Source: a virus (Duplodnaviria; Heunggongvirae; Uroviricota; Caudoviricetes). Taken from it: 46,337 nucleotides of DNA. The stretch covers positions 1 through 46,337 of IMG/VR virus record IMGVR_UViG_2740892428_000001. One strand, given 5' to 3'. The stretch's first letter is position 1. Every line of letters begins with the position of its first letter. Of this stretch, positions 1,432 to 30,238 are shown in pieces. The position numbers were made by a program, and so were the translations under genes. The notes beneath the pieces were generated by a model. The model did no database searches. It saw nothing but the letters and a program-made list of their open reading frames with translations, and had not been told where the DNA came from.

Positions 1432-1725
1432 TCACCCACGATTAACCAACAGCCAGACCAGCAGACACGCCACCACCGGCACAGCAAAATCTATCAGGCT
1501 TGCCACATCCCAAACACGCGGATCAAAACCGCCCCACCACGGCATGTTAATCCGCTTGCCATGCCCGAACATTTCAATCCAGCGATATTCTGCCTGGGTG
1601 TGTTCACGCGCAATGAAGAACGTACAACCGGCTATCGCCCCGTAAACCCAGTTTCCGGTAAAAAGACCAATCATTACCTGCGCAGCCACAGCACAAAGCG
1701 CATGAAGAAAAGGTGTTATATCCAT
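1432..1725 (-). CDS. hypothetical small membrane protein
   Basis: 97-aa ORF with two hydrophobic segments (ALCAVAAQVMIGLFTGNWVYGAIAGCTFFIA and LIDFAVPVVACLLVWLLV); family not recognised. Confidence 0.4.
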   Translation of the reverse strand: MDITPFLHALCAVAAQVMIGLFTGNWVYGAIAGCTFFIAREHTQAEYRWIEMFGHGKRINMPWWGGFDPRVWDVASLIDFAVPVVACLLVWLLVNRG

Positions 1726-1735
1726 TACTCCTCCT

Positions 1736-2440
1736 TTATCCGATATCGCTTTGGGAAGTTGATAACAACTTCAATTCTGACTCAAGTTCATCAACTCTTT
1801 CAGTCAGTTTCTGGATATGGTGAATCAGTGGAACAACCAGACGTTCGTACATTACACCTTCGGCAACAAGGCCATTGCTGGAAATGGTTTCCGGTGCATC
1901 ATCTTCGTTGGCTGGTCGCCAGTGAACAAACTGAGGGGCAATTTCTCCTACTTCCTCGGCAATCAATCCATAGAATCCCCAGTCACGCCTGTCATTTTCG
2001 CATTGCGACCTGTACCACACAGGGCGCATCCTGAAAATGAGATCGGCGTGCTCTGAATCTATCGTCTCTACTGAATGTTTATAGCGGATAGACGATGTTG
2101 ACCGCAGCACAGACGAAATTGCAGGGTCAGGATTAAGATAAAGATTTGCCGCCGCTGTAGTTGTGCCCAATCCCCATAAATAAAACGCTTCACGGCCAGT
2201 CAGCGGGTAAAAATCTCCGCCATAACGACCACTTTCCAGATCGTTCACTTCCACTTTGTTTTTCAGCTTATTATCCACTTCTGTTTTTGTGTATCTGGTA
2301 CTGATATCCTGCTTTGCACTGTCCATATCAGTCTGAAGCGTTGATACTTTTACGTTAATTGAGGAAATATCTTCCTTTGCCTTACTGACATCTCCCTTTA
2401 GCGTTTTGATGTCATCAGGAATTACTGTCGATGTAGCCAT
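1736..2440 (-). CDS. tail-fibre-like protein with C-terminal intramolecular chaperone (peptidase S74-like) domain
   Basis: 234 aa; N-terminal coiled-coil-like segment; C-terminal region (RPVWYRSQ...DWGFYGLIAEEVGEIAPQFV...GLVAEGVMYERLVVPLIHHIQKLTERVDELESEL) matches the pattern I recall for the endosialidase/tail-fibre self-cleaving chaperone domain. Confidence 0.55.
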   Translation of the reverse strand: MATSTVIPDDIKTLKGDVSKAKEDISSINVKVSTLQTDMDSAKQDISTRYTKTEVDNKLKNKVEVNDLESGRYGGDFYPLTGREAFYLWGLGTTTAAANLYLNPDPAISSVLRSTSSIRYKHSVETIDSEHADLIFRMRPVWYRSQCENDRRDWGFYGLIAEEVGEIAPQFVHWRPANEDDAPETISSNGLVAEGVMYERLVVPLIHHIQKLTERVDELESELKLLSTSQSDIG

Positions 2441-2449
2441 TTTTCTTCC

Positions 2450-2731
2450 TCACATCCAGCTACGGAGTTGATGCTCAACAGCAACCGCGTGTTCATCGAA
2501 TAATGACGATATTTGCGAATCATTAATGATGCGCACATTTACAAAATATCCGTCCTCCTTAACACATACCGGCTCGCCATCTTCAGTAAGTTCTCCGGTT
2601 TCTTTGTACACATTACCTATCACGTCAATAAGAATATCATCCTGCATCGACTCGTCATCATAATAGCCAATGCTCTCCATAAAGGCCGAAAAGTCGGCCC
2701 TGTCTGCAAATTTGAGTGTTAAATCTTTCAT
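2450..2731 (-). CDS. hypothetical protein, translationally coupled to stf
   Basis: 93-aa acidic ORF whose start overlaps the stf stop by 4 nt (2728-2731); no recognisable domain. Confidence 0.4.
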   Translation of the reverse strand: MKDLTLKFADRADFSAFMESIGYYDDESMQDDILIDVIGNVYKETGELTEDGEPVCVKEDGYFVNVRIINDSQISSLFDEHAVAVEHQLRSWM

Positions 2732-5130
2732 TTAATACTCCCCCCCATTTGCGCATCAGTTAATTCTTTATGCCAGAGACGAAGATTTCTCAAATGGCCG
2801 AATAGATGACGAGTTCCCGATGTGGCTTGACCTCCAATTCGAATAAAGGTCCGTGTTTTTACGCCCGTCCACTCCGTTTTCATAGTTTTAGTAGCCTCAC
2901 CGTTAGAAACTACTCGTTTAGTACCATCAGAATAAATATTAAAACCACCAATGAATTTTCGAACATCAGTTCGACCAGCAAACACACTAGAAACGTAAGT
3001 ACTTGTCGACGCTTTATAAGTTTGCATATAAAGCTGACCGTAATATTTCTCAGTTGTGTTAAAAGCGTATGTAATTGACTCAATAGGTGGCACACCAGAA
3101 AAATCAAAAATACGCGGTGCTACATTAGGAGGAATATCGCCCCAATTTCTATTAACCTCGACAAGACACGTAAGCGGTCTATTATAGATATTATTTTCAG
3201 TTGGGATCGTCACCATATCACTGGAGCGGGTTGCGGGTGCAGTTGTCGTAATAACAAAAGATGAAGCACATCCGCCGTTTTCAAATTGTGGTGTTGCAAG
3301 GTAAATATAATCTCCCGCTTCAGTTATACCACCTTTTTTCGGCGCATACTGAATCATTGCGCCAATTAAGGTTTCACCTTCAACAGCTTCTATAGTTGCC
3401 TCATAGAAAATCCACCCTGTAACCGGATCTTTAGTTGCAGTAGCTGCTATTCTATTGGCTGCTCCGCCAGTTTTTTCTATTATCAGAGTTCCGAAAGTTA
3501 AATAAGCATCTCCTAAAAATGTATAAACCGACCCATCGTATTTTTCAAAACGCAAACGACAACGAAGACCATCAGGAGCTTTAACCCTGCATGAAACAGT
3601 GCAATACTTATTATCGCCACTAACATCAATCCCCCGGGATGCACTGCATGTATGCAGACTAAGTGCAGATGATTGTCCTGTCATATTATCTTTTGTTCGC
3701 ATTTTGGCATATGAAAAACCAAATTCATCAACACCATTATTAGTTTTATCGATATTGCTGGTACTCGTCCATTCAGCGGGAGTATTGGATTTAACAAAAT
3801 AGTTAGTGCGCTGTCCTTCAATCAATAAACCTTCTTTTTCAAATCGTGGTTCATCAATTTTAGCAACACTAAATACGCCTGATTTATTGATATATGTGGC
3901 AGTTGATGCGCGTTTAAACTTAACAACCTTGTCGCCAGGCATCGTTATTTCATCATCACCAATAACAATTTTTTTATATGACGGCGAAAAGCCCGTAATC
4001 ATATCCAGTGAATCGTTAAACGGTATCCACACATCAGGCAGTGGCTGTAAGACATATTTATACGGCTCTGCTGCCTGGCTTGCATACTCTCTGGCTGCGT
4101 CTTCACTTGCTTTAGCTGCTGTCTGGCTTGCTGCCGATGCTTTCGCCGAGTTCGCCGCTGCAGTCTCGCTTGTCTTTGCATTGGTTTCACTGGTTTTTGC
4201 TGCTGTTTGACTGTTGGCTGATGCAGTGGCAGAAGCAGCCGCCGCGCTTGCAGAACCAGCTGCAGCACTCTCGCTTTGGGCTGCTGCATCCTGACTGTTT
4301 TTCGCCGCAGTTTCGCTGGTTTTGGCATTCGTTTCGCTGGTCTTCGCTGCCGTCTGGCTGGACTTTGCGTTAGTTTCACTCGTCTTCGCAGCTTTCTGGC
4401 TGTTAGCCGCAGCAGTTGCTGATCCAGCTGCTGAAGTCGCAGAACCGGCTGCCGCGCTCTCGCTTTGGGCTGCTGCAACCTGACTGTTTTTCGCCGCAGT
4501 TTCGCTGGTTTTGGCATTCGTTTCGCTGGTCTTCGCTGCCGTCTGGCTGGACTTTGCGTTAGTTTCGCTCGTCTTTGCGGCTGTCTCGCTGTTTTTCGCG
4601 TTGGTTTCTGATTTTTTGGCTGCTGTCGCGGAGTTTGCCGATGCAGTCTGCGAGGACGCTGCCGCCTGTGCGCTGTTAGCTGCATTCGTTTCTGAGGTTT
4701 TCGCCGCGTTCTTCGATGATGCCGCTGCAGTTTCGGATTTCTTTGCCGCCGCTGCGCTCTGAGAGGCGGCTTCGGCGTTGCGTGCCGCTTCTTCCACCAT
4801 TGCCTCAAAACGACGCAATGCCTCCGGCATGACATCATCTTCCGTCATGGCACCGAGAAAATCATTCAGCGTACCTGGTCTGGAACCTTCATAGACGGTA
4901 ATGGTTCCGGCATGTGAAGGCGGAAAACCTTCAACCAGCAGGGTGACGCTGTACTGGCCATGCTCAACATCCATGCTGTAACGCCCGGCTTCATCCGGAT
5001 TTTCAGAGGCCACCGTGTTCACCAGTACCGTGGTGCTGTTACGCTTTGCCTTCAGTTGAATAGTGCAGTTCTGTATTGGTTTTCCCGCACCATCTTTCAG
5101 CACACCTGAAATCTGTACTGCCATATTCAC
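2728..5130 (-). CDS. stf: side tail fibre protein, mosaic: lambda Stf-like N-terminus plus Ala/Ser/Thr-rich repeat shaft plus unrelated C-terminal domain
   Basis: 800 aa; N-terminus (MAVQISGVLKDGAGKPIQNCTIQLKA...) near-identical to lambda Stf as recalled; central TAAKTSETNAK-type low-complexity repeats; C-terminal ~330 aa unrelated to lambda Stf. True start may be the Met 2 codons downstream (5124). Confidence 0.85.
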   Translation of the reverse strand: MNMAVQISGVLKDGAGKPIQNCTIQLKAKRNSTTVLVNTVASENPDEAGRYSMDVEHGQYSVTLLVEGFPPSHAGTITVYEGSRPGTLNDFLGAMTEDDVMPEALRRFEAMVEEAARNAEAASQSAAAAKKSETAAASSKNAAKTSETNAANSAQAAASSQTASANSATAAKKSETNAKNSETAAKTSETNAKSSQTAAKTSETNAKTSETAAKNSQVAAAQSESAAAGSATSAAGSATAAANSQKAAKTSETNAKSSQTAAKTSETNAKTSETAAKNSQDAAAQSESAAAGSASAAAASATASANSQTAAKTSETNAKTSETAAANSAKASAASQTAAKASEDAAREYASQAAEPYKYVLQPLPDVWIPFNDSLDMITGFSPSYKKIVIGDDEITMPGDKVVKFKRASTATYINKSGVFSVAKIDEPRFEKEGLLIEGQRTNYFVKSNTPAEWTSTSNIDKTNNGVDEFGFSYAKMRTKDNMTGQSSALSLHTCSASRGIDVSGDNKYCTVSCRVKAPDGLRCRLRFEKYDGSVYTFLGDAYLTFGTLIIEKTGGAANRIAATATKDPVTGWIFYEATIEAVEGETLIGAMIQYAPKKGGITEAGDYIYLATPQFENGGCASSFVITTTAPATRSSDMVTIPTENNIYNRPLTCLVEVNRNWGDIPPNVAPRIFDFSGVPPIESITYAFNTTEKYYGQLYMQTYKASTSTYVSSVFAGRTDVRKFIGGFNIYSDGTKRVVSNGEATKTMKTEWTGVKTRTFIRIGGQATSGTRHLFGHLRNLRLWHKELTDAQMGGSIK
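4268..4645. repeat. in-frame tandem duplication (2 x 189 bp) inside stf
   Basis: 4268-4456 and 4457-4645 are near-identical over ~125 bp (ctctcgctttgggctgctgca...gactttgcgttagtttc); period 189 bp = 63 codons. Confidence 0.8.
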
Positions 5131-25858: not shown

Positions 25859-26061
25859 ATTTTCACTTTCTTAAATCTAACGACAGACGGCTAACATTTA
25901 AGTATTGTGAAATATTATCAAATGTAATCATCATTGATTTACAAAAGATACATTTTGCCCCGAAAGGATTCCTGTCAGAAACATCAAAAGATGATGTTCT
26001 ATACTGAGAACCATGGCAACACGGGCATCTAAAGTGAATATGGTTTGTAATATTTTCTACC

Positions 26062-26274
26062 TCAAAGTGCCACAACATGAACAGCCGCGGGGCCTTTAGG
26101 TCCGTTCTCAATACCAAATTCGACTTCCTGATTCTCAGTTAACGTTTTGAAATCGTTGCTCTGAATAGCTGAGAAATGGACAAACACATCTTTGCTACCA
26201 TCTTTCGGCGTGATGAAACCAAAACCTTTTTCAGGGTTAAACCATTTCACTAAACCAGTCATTTTGTTAGACAT
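26062..26274 (-). CDS. cspI: cold-shock protein family (CspI-like)
   Basis: 70 aa from [38 protein letters not shown] (RNP1/RNP2 motifs); long AT-rich 5' region upstream as in csp genes. Confidence 0.8.
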
Positions 26275-26637
26275 CATTATTACCTTTTGAAGAAGTTAGC
26301 CCTTGGGCAGAATGGTCCGAAAAAAAATATCAGAGAGAAAAACCAACAAGGAAATCTCAAGAGGTACAAATAATAAAATTATAACAATGACTGCTTCAGA
26401 TAATTTTGTAACAAACCAGAACACCATTAACGCATGATTAACCAACCATAGCAAGGATTACTTTTGTAAAGAAAAACACACGAATGAAACAATAGCTTTA
26501 TTTATTAATAAAACGTGTCATTCTGTCTAATGACCTTTTATCTTACCCTTAAGATTTCAAGGATTTTGACTCATGGAAGAGTCCTTTTTATTTAAATTTC
26601 ACATTCAGCGCTAAAAATAATCCGATTTAATATTAAT

Positions 26638-27130
<493 letters not shown>

Positions 27131-27134
<4 letters not shown>

Positions 27135-27664
27135 TGTTCTATCCCCCAGCAGGTTAATGCACTCTCCTGGTCACGACGAATAACCTGACCGTAACAATTA
27201 TTTGAACGAATGCGGCAATCACGTCCACCGTCCTTTATCCACCAGCGAATCGCCTCGCATGCGCCTTTACGATCACCGGCATTAAGCCGCTTATAAAACG
27301 TCGACGGAAAACACTTACCAGGGCCAATGTTATAGGGACAGAATGACGCGATACCGGCTTTCTGTGGCTCGGTCAGTGGAACTTTTATATTGCGCTCCAC
27401 CCATGCCAGCGCCTTATCCCGCTCAATGGCGTTAACCTGGGCGCATTTTTCCTTCGACAGTTTCATTCCCGGAATAACAGGTTTACCGTCCACCATCGTT
27501 GCTCCCCGACAGATGGTCCATATGCCGGAGCCATCGCGGTATGCAGTGGTGTGATTCCCCTCTTTTTCATCCAGAAACTGATCGAGAATGTCAGGGGCAG
27601 GAGCACTGGCGGCAATCAGTGCCAGAACAGCGGCCGACAGGCTGTATCTGATTTTTACGTTCAT
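27131..27664 (-). CDS. R: endolysin, T4-lysozyme-like (GH24), probable SAR type
   Basis: 177 aa; catalytic E-x8-D-x5-T pattern (EGNHTTAYRDGSGIWT); weakly hydrophobic Ala-rich N-terminus (SLSAAVLALIAASAPA) typical of signal-anchor-release endolysins paired with pinholins. Confidence 0.85.
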
Positions 27665-27777
27665 GGATATTTATCAGGATTTATCGGCTTCAAATCCCCG
27701 GATATGTTAAATCTTACCTCACCAGTGATGGGCACTGGCGGGAGGAGGATGTCAATCTGATAAACACCGAGGCGACT

Positions 27778-28038
27778 ATGGATTACACAAATCTACCAAA
27801 ACAAACTTTTGCTGATTTAATCGCACTCAGGCAAGCAGTCGTAGCTCTAATCAACTTGTTGCCGGAGAAGGAAAAGGAATTAGTTAAAGCGCTTCTTAAC
27901 AGAACTGCCGCCGATTTTTCATCATATCCACTGACAGATGACCTTGCGGACCTTCCTGAATTAATTGCAGCGTCCGCCATTAAGCTTACTGAAGAGATTT
28001 ACCCTCCTCAAAAATCTTCACAAAATTCCTGCGAGTAA
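27778..28038 (+). CDS. hypothetical protein, antisense-oriented inside the lysis cassette
   Basis: 86-aa ORF with a GAGG RBS 5 nt upstream of the ATG; 3' end overlaps the convergent 27986-28537 gene. Confidence 0.35.
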   Translation: MDYTNLPKQTFADLIALRQAVVALINLLPEKEKELVKALLNRTAADFSSYPLTDDLADLPELIAASAIKLTEEIYPPQKSSQNSCE

Positions 28039-28537
28039 CTTCAATGCAATAATCGTAAAACGCCGCAAACTGCTCATCGCGGCGTTTTTTTTCATCTTCA
28101 GAAGGAATCAGCACCAACAATTTTTTATTCAGATCAGCGACGCTGCTCTCCAGTTTTTCAATGGGCGATTCAATATCATCTTTTTCTGACCGCAATGCCG
28201 TCGGTGGCGTCTTCAGAGAACCTGTAATTCTTCCCGGTAGCTTTCCTTTGTAGGTTATCCACACATTCTGCGCCTCTAAAATTACCGGGCGCTTTTCCGG
28301 CGACAGCTCATCTCCTTCACATAACCCGGCAGCAACATCCAGGAAGAACTGTCTGATGCTCCTTCTCGCTGCTGCCTCATAAAACTCCAGCGCGGCACCT
28401 TCAACACGGTCCAGCGAGATGTCCAGGTCAAAAATTTCACCGTCAAAGCGTTTTTTGTCCCGTAAGGCTACAGTTACCGCCACTTTATTCTCAAAATTGC
28501 GGACTCCTTTCACAACCAGTTCATAGTCTTGTGTCAT
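27986..28537 (-). CDS. hypothetical protein inserted between holin and endolysin
   Basis: Start set at MTQDYELVVKGVRNFENK (183 aa), 4 nt after the S stop; the six-frame ORF extends to 28558; no catalytic motif recognised. Confidence 0.5.
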   Translation of the reverse strand: MTQDYELVVKGVRNFENKVAVTVALRDKKRFDGEIFDLDISLDRVEGAALEFYEAAARRSIRQFFLDVAAGLCEGDELSPEKRPVILEAQNVWITYKGKLPGRITGSLKTPPTALRSEKDDIESPIEKLESSVADLNKKLLVLIPSEDEKKRRDEQFAAFYDYCIEVTRRNFVKIFEEGKSLQ

Positions 28538-28541
28538 TGGA

Positions 28542-28757
28542 TTACTCTCTTCTCGCAACCTTACGCCTGTCTTCTTTAATCTTGAAATAAAGGTTTGTCA
28601 GATACGTCAGCAGGCCAAAAACCAGACTACCCAGCACACCGATTGCAGCCCACTGTGACGGAGTTACTTTATCGAGTAACTGCAATGCCCAGAAACCAGC
28701 ATTACCAGCCGATGTGCCATAGGCGATACCTGTTGTTAACTTATCCATTGATTTCAT
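28542..28757 (-). CDS. S: class II holin (phage 21 S-like pinholin) with dual-start motif
   Basis: 71 aa; [66 protein letters not shown]: two TM segments and Met1-Lys-x-Met4 dual start; resembles S21 as recalled. Confidence 0.8.
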
Positions 28758-28975: not shown

Positions 28976-29146
28976 ATGTCAGAACGTAAAGACTCAAAAT
29001 CACGCCGTAATTATCTCGTTAAATGTTCCTGCCCAAACTGCACCCAAGAGTCAGAACACAGTTTTTCAAGAGTACAAAAAGGTGCCCTTTTGATCTGCCC
29101 TCATTGCAACAAAGTATTCCAGACAAATCTTAAAGCTGTAGCTTGA
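28976..29146 (+). CDS. small zinc-ribbon protein (CxxC...CxxC)
   Basis: Start set at MSERKDSK (56 aa) with an AGGAAAAG RBS; motifs CPNC and CPHC; followed by a bidirectional terminator. Confidence 0.35.
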   Translation: MSERKDSKSRRNYLVKCSCPNCTQESEHSFSRVQKGALLICPHCNKVFQTNLKAVA

Positions 29147-29234: not shown

Positions 29235-29509
29235 GTGGTGCTTTTTGTGGGAGTCATCCACTTACGCACTTTGTTTTGCTATGCCAGCAGTTAGCTTCTG
29301 CTGTAAAACTATTCATGCAGCAAACCTGCACTTCACCACAATGGTTAGCATACTTTTCCTGATTAAGTTATTGCCAAATATGCTGGCCATTGTTTCATGT
29401 ATTGGACCTCCTTACTATTTATTAAAGAGATCCAATATTCACCACTCTGTCTGTATCTCCACTCAGGCATCAGCCTTCTTCGTTATCGTATACAGACAAA
29501 CTATGAATT

Positions 29510-29725
29510 TTAATCAGTAATTATGACATTTGCTGCTGCAGGACCTTTAGCACCACTCTCTACAGAGAAGGTAACCTTTTGACCTTCAAATAAGGTTCGA
29601 AAATTATCATTCTGAATCGCAGAAAAATGCACAAACACATCTTTACTACCATCAACAGGAGAAATAAAGCCAAAACCTTTATCAGCGTTAAACCATTTTA
29701 CTAAACCAGTCATTTTATTTGACAT
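29510..29725 (-). CDS. cspB: cold-shock protein family (CspB-like)
   Basis: 71 aa [53 protein letters not shown]... Confidence 0.8.
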
Positions 29726-30025
29726 TCTACATTCCTTAACTTGAGCCTTTCGGCATAAATGGCTTGTATAACAGAAACGACTTCGTACTTAATTGGAGAG
29801 ACTCAAAGAAGGAATAAGTGAATAACACCTGAAATGAGAACTGCTTTAGTAAACTACTTCGTATATCGTCTGTTCTTCAAACCGACGCAATCATTAACGC
29901 ATAGTTGAACATATGAAGCAATGTTTATTTTAGACATCCAGCCATCTTCAACCCCATCAAAAAACTATAGCTTTCTTCAGGAAGGTGTGTATAGTGCGCC
30001 CAGTTATCAGTATTAAGGAATTTTT

Positions 30026-30238
30026 TTGTCCCGTAAAATGACAGGAATTGTCAAAACCTTTGACGGCAAAAGCGGCAAGGGTCTTATCACCCCATCCGAT
30101 GGTCGTATCGATGTCCAGCTTCATGTTTCAGCGCTCAATCTCCGCGATGCAGAAGAAATTGCCACCGGATTACGCGTGGAATTTTGCCGGATAAATGGTC
30201 TGCGTGGCCCTTCAGCTGCCAATGTTTACCTTTCATGA
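30026..30238 (+). CDS. cspF: cold-shock protein family, divergent paralogue (CspF/CspH-like)
   Basis: 70 aa [26 protein letters not shown]...; apparent TTG start with an AAGGAA RBS. Confidence 0.7.

Follow-up and report, generated by a model that had tools for sequence, protein, structure and literature searches.

The window considered here is the whole 46,337-nucleotide (nt) stretch of IMG/VR virus record IMGVR_UViG_2740892428_000001 (Duplodnaviria; Heunggongvirae; Uroviricota; Caudoviricetes), and the subject of this report is the interval between the holin gene S and the endolysin gene R in the lysis cassette of this E. coli prophage. A preliminary description had reported two extra genes inserted at this place, one encoding a late-strand protein of 183-190 amino acids (aa) and the other being a convergent 86-aa open reading frame (ORF). 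The late-strand ORF is a YdfR-family (DUF1327) gene, the usual occupant of the holin-endolysin junction in Qin-type cassettes. The truly extra segment is about 580 bp long, of lower G+C content, and comprises a tail of about 70 aa joined to YdfR together with the convergent 86-aa gene. What is new here is that, judging from sequence comparison, the tail and the convergent gene can be recognised as a conserved mobile pair that Salmonella prophages share. The features of the interval are as follows.

28542-28757, minus strand: S21-type class II holin, essQ-like, 71 aa (Pfam PF04971 Phage_holin_2_1, 'Bacteriophage P21 holin S', E=7e-34)
27986-28558, minus strand: late-strand ORF, 190 aa when counted from TTG
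28202-28537, minus strand: residues 1-112 of the YdfR-family ORF, the DUF1327 domain (PF07041)
27986-28201, minus strand: residues 113-183 of the YdfR-family ORF, a coiled-coil linker and helical tail fused in frame to DUF1327
28058-28092, plus strand, followed by a run of eight T (T8): conserved hairpin found in RNA folds, AAACGCCGC, a 12-nt loop and GCGGCGTTT, with a G+C-rich stem of 9 bp
27778-28038, plus strand: convergent 86-aa gene, PHROG 2572 (phrog_2572 matched over 86/86 residues, E=1e-53)
27769-27772, plus strand: Shine-Dalgarno sequence GAGG of the 86-aa gene, 5 nt ahead of its ATG, read from the sequence
27665-27708, plus strand: non-coding element upstream of the 86-aa gene, GGATATTTATCAGGATTTATCGG, conserved across versions of the pair
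27680-27685 and 27703-27708, plus strand: weak candidate promoter, TTTATC, 17 nt and TATGTT, within the conserved upstream element
27131-27664, minus strand: rrrQ-type lysozyme, 177 aa (Pfam PF00959 Phage_lysozyme, E=3e-24; annotated rrrQ)

An ORF map of the window confirmed every ORF where it had first been placed, with S and R, both matched by Pfam, flanking the late-strand ORF and the convergent 86-aa ORF. At their 3′ ends, the two inner ORFs have 53 nt in common (27986-28038). The holin carries an MKSM dual-start motif and is annotated essQ in genomes that are 99.7% identical. The lysozyme has a weakly hydrophobic N-terminus, and the variable sites of its gene number 32, 28 and 118 at codon positions 1, 2 and 3. 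In RefSeq genomes 99-99.7% identical, the gene order is given as essQ, YdfR family protein, hypothetical protein and rrrQ.

YdfR at the holin-endolysin junction

All homologues of the late-strand ORF begin MTQ(D/N)YEL at the position of the ATG at 28537 (here MTQDYELVV...), 4 nt past the holin stop. The product is therefore 183 aa long, and the upper figure of 190 aa does not hold. Its match to PF07041 reaches 144.7 bits for a cut-off of 25 (E=1e-42) and spans profile positions 1-92 of 93, while phrog_2091, the long-form YdfR sub-family, is matched over 183/183 residues. The DUF1327 domain is predicted to fold into a strand-strand-strand-helix core (residues 5-73), with an AlphaFold2 predicted local distance difference test (pLDDT) score of 62-83 over residues 1-70, followed by a conserved but poorly modelled stretch. 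Its variable sites by codon position are 26/25/41. The 183-aa protein shows no transmembrane, signal or lipobox segment, its maximum Kyte-Doolittle mean over 19 residues being 0.81. A search of the YdfR alignment against PDB sequence profiles gave chance-level matches only (PARP1, E=0.02), and in the literature the term 'DUF1327' was found once, in passing.

The closest characterised relative is YdfR of the Qin prophage of E. coli K-12 (P76160), which belongs to the same family and is likewise encoded on the late strand between essQ and rrrQ. In K-12, the neighbourhood reads ydfT-cspF-cspB-ynfU-essQ-ydfR-rrrQ-rzpQ-cspI (the record names the holin essD). The two proteins are 84% identical over residues 1-74 and differ in sequence after residue ~74, where the window protein has an added coiled-coil linker and helical tail. 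The K-12 gene encodes a protein of 103 aa and ends in a 4-nt overlap of its stop with the start of rrrQ, whereas in the window 321 nt and the convergent gene lie between the stop of the 183-aa frame and the lysozyme start.

The S-R junction was surveyed in 80 IMG/VR loci, those with the holins most similar to that of the window (90-100% identical), and 79 of these loci contain both S and R. Endolysins at least 80% identical to the window lysozyme were classed as rrrQ-type and those about 30% identical to it as R21-type. S abuts R in 29 of the 79 loci, another 36 read S-YdfR-R without the 86-aa ORF (31 of these with a short YdfR form of ~310 nt), and the remaining 14 have the long arrangement of the window. 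This split tracks the endolysin exactly, as YdfR lies between S and R in 50/50 rrrQ-type loci and in 0/29 R21-type loci. Because it occupies the junction in every rrrQ-type locus, YdfR is a constant gene of this cassette type and not an insertion. More broadly, DUF1327 DNA is present in 4349 of 5426 complete E. coli genomes (80%), with up to 10 matching places per genome. The large ORF is a known, catalogued and very common prophage gene in its standard place.

These counts also change the terms in which the locus was first described. The preliminary description had taken phage 21-type cassettes (S21-R21-Rz21) for comparison, in which S and R are adjacent. This adjacency is seen in all 29 loci with an R21-type endolysin, none of which has YdfR. 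However, the window lysozyme is of the rrrQ type, so that the comparison used the wrong cassette type, the window following the Qin order essQ-ydfR-rrrQ. The likeness to phage 21 is in the holin, which belongs to the S21 pinholin family PF04971 and shares the MKSM dual start. Similarly, the interval had been called accessory content, which is accurate for the C-terminal tail and the 86-aa gene but not for the DUF1327 gene. When the conservation of the insert across related prophages was compared, as had been proposed, tail and 86-aa gene were found together in 14/50 rrrQ-type loci, and their DNA in 314 of the 5426 complete genomes. Homology making the large protein a standard lysis accessory had been named as an outcome that would refute the preliminary view; the 183-aa gene is indeed standard in its position, though not in any known lysis role.

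The only experimental lead on the function of the interval comes from K-12 YdfR, which was recovered in a bacterial two-hybrid screen and binds RNase E 1-597 through its residues 1-72 (PMC13232886, 2026). In addition, it co-purifies RNase E 1-598 together with DNase-resistant nucleic acid/RNA (PMC13232886). Residues 1-74 of the window protein cover the reported binding segment, and binding of RNase E or RNA by the window protein is inferred from this homology.

The perfect linkage of YdfR to one endolysin type could also mean that YdfR, with or without its tail, is a dedicated accessory of that endolysin, acting in lysis timing, as a chaperone or regulator of R, or in envelope integrity, and not on RNA. 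Such a role would suit the tight packing in K-12, where ydfR starts 4 nt past the holin stop and runs into rrrQ. Furthermore, ydfR was flagged in a genome-wide envelope-biogenesis screen, at least as that screen is cited in PMC13232886 (its ref. 79). However, the linkage may simply reflect one DNA block that is inherited together, and the protein is devoid of transmembrane and signal segments. Although the inserted cassette puts 321 nt between ydfR and R in the window, the near-identical phages 2H10 and PhiR63_1 are viable, and RNase E and RNA are what the sole direct biochemical data point to. A dedicated lysis accessory is thus unlikely on balance.

YdfR-family proteins are modular, and three forms can be distinguished after the DUF1327 region (residues 1-112). 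The first ends there, as in the single-domain proteins of 103-116 aa found in K-12 and most copies, a length that the window protein exceeds. The second, to which the window protein belongs, has a coiled-coil linker that leads to a conserved tail, KRRDEQFAAFYDYCIEVTRRNFVKIFEEGKSLQ, and occurs as variants of 169, 176, 183 and 211 aa, set apart by in-frame indels but ending in an identical C-terminus. The third carries an additional domain of ~120 aa, for a total of 268 or 296 aa. The codon-usage log-likelihood of the C-terminal 71 codons, 0.41 bits/codon, is the highest of the region (0.24 +/- 0.11 for the long genes of the window). The tail also resembles a stand-alone 73-aa ORF in locus L169, with 43% identity over the last 35 residues of both (BLASTP E=9e-6), and a profile search recovers many stand-alone 73-aa homologues in Salmonella. 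Taken together, the in-frame variants, the shared C-terminus, the coding score and the stand-alone homologues show that the tail is a real coding segment fused to DUF1327. Searches of Pfam, NCBIfam, PADLOC, PDB sequences, PDB and BFVD folds and Rfam gave no identifying match for it.

RefSeq labels the 183-aa gene a pseudogene, 'incomplete; missing C-terminus', in every genome examined (e.g., NZ_CP032145). On this reading, the ORF would be a truncated YdfR without its C-terminus, and the 71 extra codons a fortuitous read-through. Yet these codons form the best-scoring coding stretch of the region, their frame is kept through several indel variants, they have stand-alone homologues, and the full-length product has a PHROG of its own. 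Moreover, the Pfam profile is matched almost to its last position, so that no part of DUF1327 is missing. The pseudogene label is not supported, and a read-through origin of the extension is extremely improbable. A further possibility, that the DNA beneath the 86-aa ORF is the decayed C-terminal domain of the 296-aa or 268-aa YdfR, was rejected, since tblastn gave no match past residue ~171.

The convergent 86-aa gene and the mobile pair

The convergent ORF had been credited with a good ribosome binding site, and the GAGG placed 5 nt before its ATG bears this out. Its last 17 codons overlap the last 17 codons of the tail. The protein is acidic (pI 4.6), as are its homologues, which are also small (pI 4.6-4.7). 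AlphaFold2 predicts three helices (residues 8-26, 30-48 and 56-74) with a pLDDT of 75, from an alignment of only 12 sequences. Its hydropathy maximum of 1.62 is borderline; the stretch concerned is a helix of 15 residues that carries a conserved Arg-Gln at its centre, which falls short of a membrane segment.

An exhaustive HMMER search recovered full-length relatives of the 86-aa protein at 41-49% identity, P0139 (93 aa, E=9e-14) and P0140 (89 aa), and a Salmonella homologue is 46% identical (E=7e-19). These distant homologues keep the start codon, a Shine-Dalgarno sequence (of different sequence, TAAGGA), the helix pattern and the acidic character. When the 86-aa frame was compared with the antisense frame of the same DNA in three divergent pairs, its BLOSUM62 scores were the higher ones each time (159 vs 143, 137 vs 88 and 191 vs 138), and all indels in the gene are in frame. 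This deeper comparison, with its kept start and Shine-Dalgarno sequence, in-frame indels and full-length homologues, identifies the 86-aa ORF as a genuine gene.

Several observations weigh against this. The codon-usage score is low, at 0.05 bits/codon. Within E. coli, the variable sites are distributed 7/7/13 over the codon positions with 12 synonymous and 16 nonsynonymous changes (S=12, N=16), which is a near-neutral pattern. The start is lost (ATG to ACG) in 7/87 loci, one allele carries a nonsense mutation and another an IS3 insertion, and a scan for consensus sigma-70 promoters upstream of the gene found nothing. In addition, the spread is narrow, as a GTDB scan of 185,579 species-representative genomes yielded one 86-aa locus, in E. 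coli. All this would be expected of a silent ORF, be it a decaying relic or an annotation artefact, with the stretch after the tail acting as a spacer before R. Such an ORF would, however, hardly keep full-length homologues with the same start, helix pattern and acidity, a sense frame that outscores the antisense frame in every divergent pair, exclusively in-frame indels, or a conserved upstream element and downstream hairpin; the helical model, although from a shallow alignment, points the same way. A silent ORF is thus very doubtful. Rather, the 86-aa ORF is concluded to be a genuine protein family under relaxed constraint in cryptic prophages, and neither it nor the 183-aa ORF is a chance ORF.

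A 65-aa late-strand ORF that lies antisense to the 86-aa gene (27783-27980, minus strand) and starts 5 nt past the YdfR stop was considered as a possible gene and rejected. Its third codon positions coincide with those of the 86-aa frame, which keeps it open by construction, so that counts by codon position cannot separate the two frames. No start codon is conserved for it in L169 or L172, and the sense frame outscores it by BLOSUM62. The label DUF1823, which the 86-aa ORF bears in GenBank records PV340545 and PV340549, was likewise rejected, as Pfam gave no DUF1823 match at E<=0.1 for the window protein or at E<=1 for P0139 and P0140. The 86-aa protein has no significant Pfam family, and none was found in NCBIfam, PADLOC, PDB sequence profiles, or PDB or BFVD folds. 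Hence the profile and structure-prediction searches that had been proposed for both proteins returned the DUF1327 family for the late-strand ORF and no informative fold or family for its convergent neighbour. A literature search found no paper naming the accessions of the 86-aa protein. The IS3-family element mentioned above lies in L087 (NZ_CP169026, E. coli UTME-2, 1577-3150), inserted in the gene after codon ~64.

The tail and the 86-aa gene share a distinct base composition, with a G+C content of 0.42-0.43 over 27700-28200 and of 0.50-0.53 in the flanks (R and the DUF1327 domain). The pair occurs in three contexts. In the window it is fused to a long YdfR, and in L172 to a K-12-like YdfR, adjoining R. 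In the third context it is free. There, in loci L169-L171 and in the Salmonella enterica prophages L174-L176, a 93-aa gene converges with a stand-alone 73-aa gene, with an overlap of 59 nt. The 73-aa gene starts at the stop of an Rz-like DUF2514 gene, which places the pair between the lysis genes and terS. The neighbouring lysis genes in Salmonella (Phage_holin_8, Phage_holin_3_7 and a GH19 endolysin) are unrelated to those of the window. Across versions of the pair, the 3′ overlap measures 53-59 nt. E. coli HS carries the cassette (NC_009800, 1669153-1669493), as do four phages that were isolated or induced, 2H10, PhiR63_1, PhiR5_1 and PhiR12_x; over most of 24 kb, PhiR63_1 and 2H10 share ~97% identity with the window. 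Its presence in such phages indicates that the arrangement is compatible with a working lysis cassette.

Two non-coding elements accompany the pair. The hairpin lies 20 nt past the stop of the 86-aa gene, within the coding sequence of the tail (KKRRDEQFAAF). Its nine base pairs are all kept in six versions of the pair, and in L172 one compensatory change from G-C to A-U maintains the stem even though the encoded residues change. With its T8, the hairpin looks like an intrinsic terminator of the 86-aa gene. Upstream of the gene, a core of ~25 nt, ATATTTATCAGG(A/C)TTTATC, is near-invariant although the proteins are 41-49% identical, and it is kept in Salmonella without an adjacent R. The hexamers TTTATC and TATGTT of this element, with their 17-nt spacing, may act as a promoter. 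Both proposals have points against them: the T-run after the hairpin is degenerate in distant versions of the pair, and the candidate promoter hexamers match the consensus at only 3/6 and 4/6 positions. Rfam has no family in the S-R interval.

The conserved geometry of the pair raises another possibility, namely a two-component toxin-antidote, exclusion or abortive-infection module that rides in lysis regions, with one small protein neutralising the other or the mRNA of the 86-aa gene serving as an antisense antidote to the tail message. The two genes have been inherited together in E. coli and Salmonella, at 27-49% protein identity and with the 3′ overlap and hairpin conserved, and the pair has a lower G+C content and moves between sites. 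Its geometry recalls convergent type I toxin-antitoxin loci with a common bidirectional terminator. However, neither the 183-aa nor the 86-aa protein has a match in NCBIfam, or in PADLOC at E<=0.1, nor does either fall in a toxin or antitoxin family of Pfam or NCBIfam, and neither is a short hydrophobic toxin. The 296-aa and 268-aa YdfR variants have no 86-aa partner, even though the 296-aa form carries a tail-like segment. Furthermore, the 86-aa alleles disrupted by start loss, nonsense mutation or IS3 persist beside an apparently intact tail ORF, a finding that would be surprising for an essential antidote. A module of this kind is quite improbable.

Other copies of the junction show further changes. 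In L093 (IMG/VR contig 2660238349_000011, 3031-3303, minus strand), another convergent acidic ORF, of 90 aa (phrog_2411, MDNNTISLQELL...), shares 35 nt with the 3′ end of a short YdfR (114 aa) at the same S-R junction. BLASTP shows no similarity between this ORF and the 86-aa protein, and the junction seems to collect convergent small genes. Elsewhere in IMG/VR, transposase-like ORFs break the cassette, within rrrQ beside a K-12-type ydfR in L101 and within a long ydfR in L130, where they part the DUF1327 domain from the linker. These two loci indicate that cryptic cassettes are often disrupted.

Proposed function of the interval

In lambda, the bor gene is a lambdoid moron, an opposite-strand gene beside the lysis genes that is expressed in the lysogen, and it sits between the Rz-like gene and terS. 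The 86-aa gene is likewise small, independent, convergent with the late operon and variably present, with a lower G+C content than its flanks and a terminator-like hairpin of its own. In Salmonella, the pair lies at the site corresponding to that of bor, and in L114 a Bor-like lipoprotein ORF occupies the equivalent place, directly following the spanin genes. Unlike Bor, the 86-aa product is not a lipoprotein and its gene has a candidate promoter only; unlike classical morons, it is always paired with an overlapping late-strand partner. Since variable presence (14/50 rrrQ-type cassettes), distinct base composition and an apparent terminator were all found, the tail and 86-aa cassette can be described as moron-like accessory content, which most otherwise similar lysis cassettes do without.

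The explanation favoured here, to which we assign a probability of about 0.55, is that of a resident YdfR gene into which a mobile, moron-like, convergent two-gene cassette has been inserted, together with a mechanism that involves RNase E and alternating expression. The lower-G+C cassette would have entered downstream of the DUF1327 domain, joining its helical tail of ~70 aa in frame to DUF1327 and so giving rise to the 183-aa protein. The 86-aa gene would remain independent, served by its own Shine-Dalgarno sequence, the conserved upstream element and the hairpin-T8 terminator. Judging from its strand and operon position, the 183-aa gene would be read along with S and R from the late promoter under Q antitermination, and late in infection its DUF1327 domain would bind the catalytic half of host RNase E, RNA or both, by homology to K-12 YdfR. 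The 86-aa gene, in turn, may be transcribed in the lysogen, when late transcription is off, from the weak conserved candidate promoter. Its transcript would end at the hairpin, overlapping the 3′ end of the YdfR-tail message by ~110 nt, and this overlap would make the two members of the pair mutually antisense and expressed in alternation. The preliminary description had considered that the position of the insert guarantees late expression; this can be retained for the late-strand ORF alone, the 86-aa gene being antisense to the late transcript.

Lambda offers a parallel to such an arrangement, to be taken as a lead, in the oop RNA and cII, a 3′-overlap antisense pair with convergent transcripts that overlap by some tens of nt and a hairpin end. 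The pair shares the convergent 3′ overlap and the hairpin, and by analogy may exert an antisense effect; unlike oop/cII, both of its partners encode conserved proteins. Among phage modulators of RNase E, Dip of phiKZ binds the C-terminal scaffold, and gp0.7 of T7 is a kinase. YdfR has no sequence relationship or convincing fold relationship to either, and the likeness is functional only, in the sense that it may work like them. In contrast to these modulators, overproduction of YdfR barely alters the transcriptome, which weighs against the RNase E part of the explanation, as does the possibility that the YdfR-RNase E interaction is bridged by RNA, the components used not being purified ones (PMC13232886).

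A more ambitious proposal extends the explanation above to the pair as a whole. The tail gene of ~70 aa and the convergent gene of 86-93 aa could form an undescribed, self-contained module of enterobacterial lambdoid phages, in which the overlapping 3′ ends and the shared hairpin would cause the two products to exclude each other, one belonging to the lysogen and one to the late lytic phase. The proteins would then target one another or the same component of the host, and the capture of the module in E. coli would have come about through fusion with an RNase E-binding domain. This proposal is speculative and rather unlikely.

Neighbouring genes and biological meaning

The genes around the lysis cassette of the window resemble those of K-12 Qin. 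Downstream of R, the Rz-like spanin gene rzpQ (DUF2514; 26638-27134, minus strand) is split into ORFs of 41 and 140 aa by a 1-nt deletion in the A-run at 27049-27055, which is A7 here and A8 in K-12 and in a 99.7% identical genome. Either the frameshift is genuine and the spanin inactivated, or the missing A is a sequencing error in the homopolymer. On either side of the cassette there is a cold-shock gene, cspB-like at 29510-29725 and cspI-like at 26062-26277, each covered by a full-length Rfam match to the cspA thermoregulator (29447-29886 and 26016-26432, both on the minus strand; 156 and 110 bits for a gathering score of 78). Together with a cspF-like gene (30026-30238, plus strand), they are csp morons of the kind present in K-12 Qin. 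As K-12 Qin also does, the window has a small Cys-rich ORF (28976-29146, plus strand) immediately upstream of the holin on the opposite strand; it corresponds to the putative zinc-binding protein YnfU, and is thus a further opposite-strand small gene of the late region.

The S-R interval is ordinary mosaic content of lambdoid late regions and a modestly interesting cassette. The understanding of lysis cassettes is unchanged by it unless a phenotype is found. Two annotations can be corrected, namely the RefSeq pseudogene flag on the 183-aa gene and the DUF1823 label on the 86-aa gene in some phage records. YdfR/DUF1327 is among the commonest E. coli prophage genes and the constant companion of one endolysin type. 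The reported binding of K-12 YdfR to the catalytic half of RNase E makes an effect on RNA decay in the late phase testable in inducible phages that carry ydfR. As for the tail and the 86-aa gene, they represent a compact and conserved case of convergent overlapping genes that move as a unit between the lysis cassettes of Escherichia and Salmonella phages.

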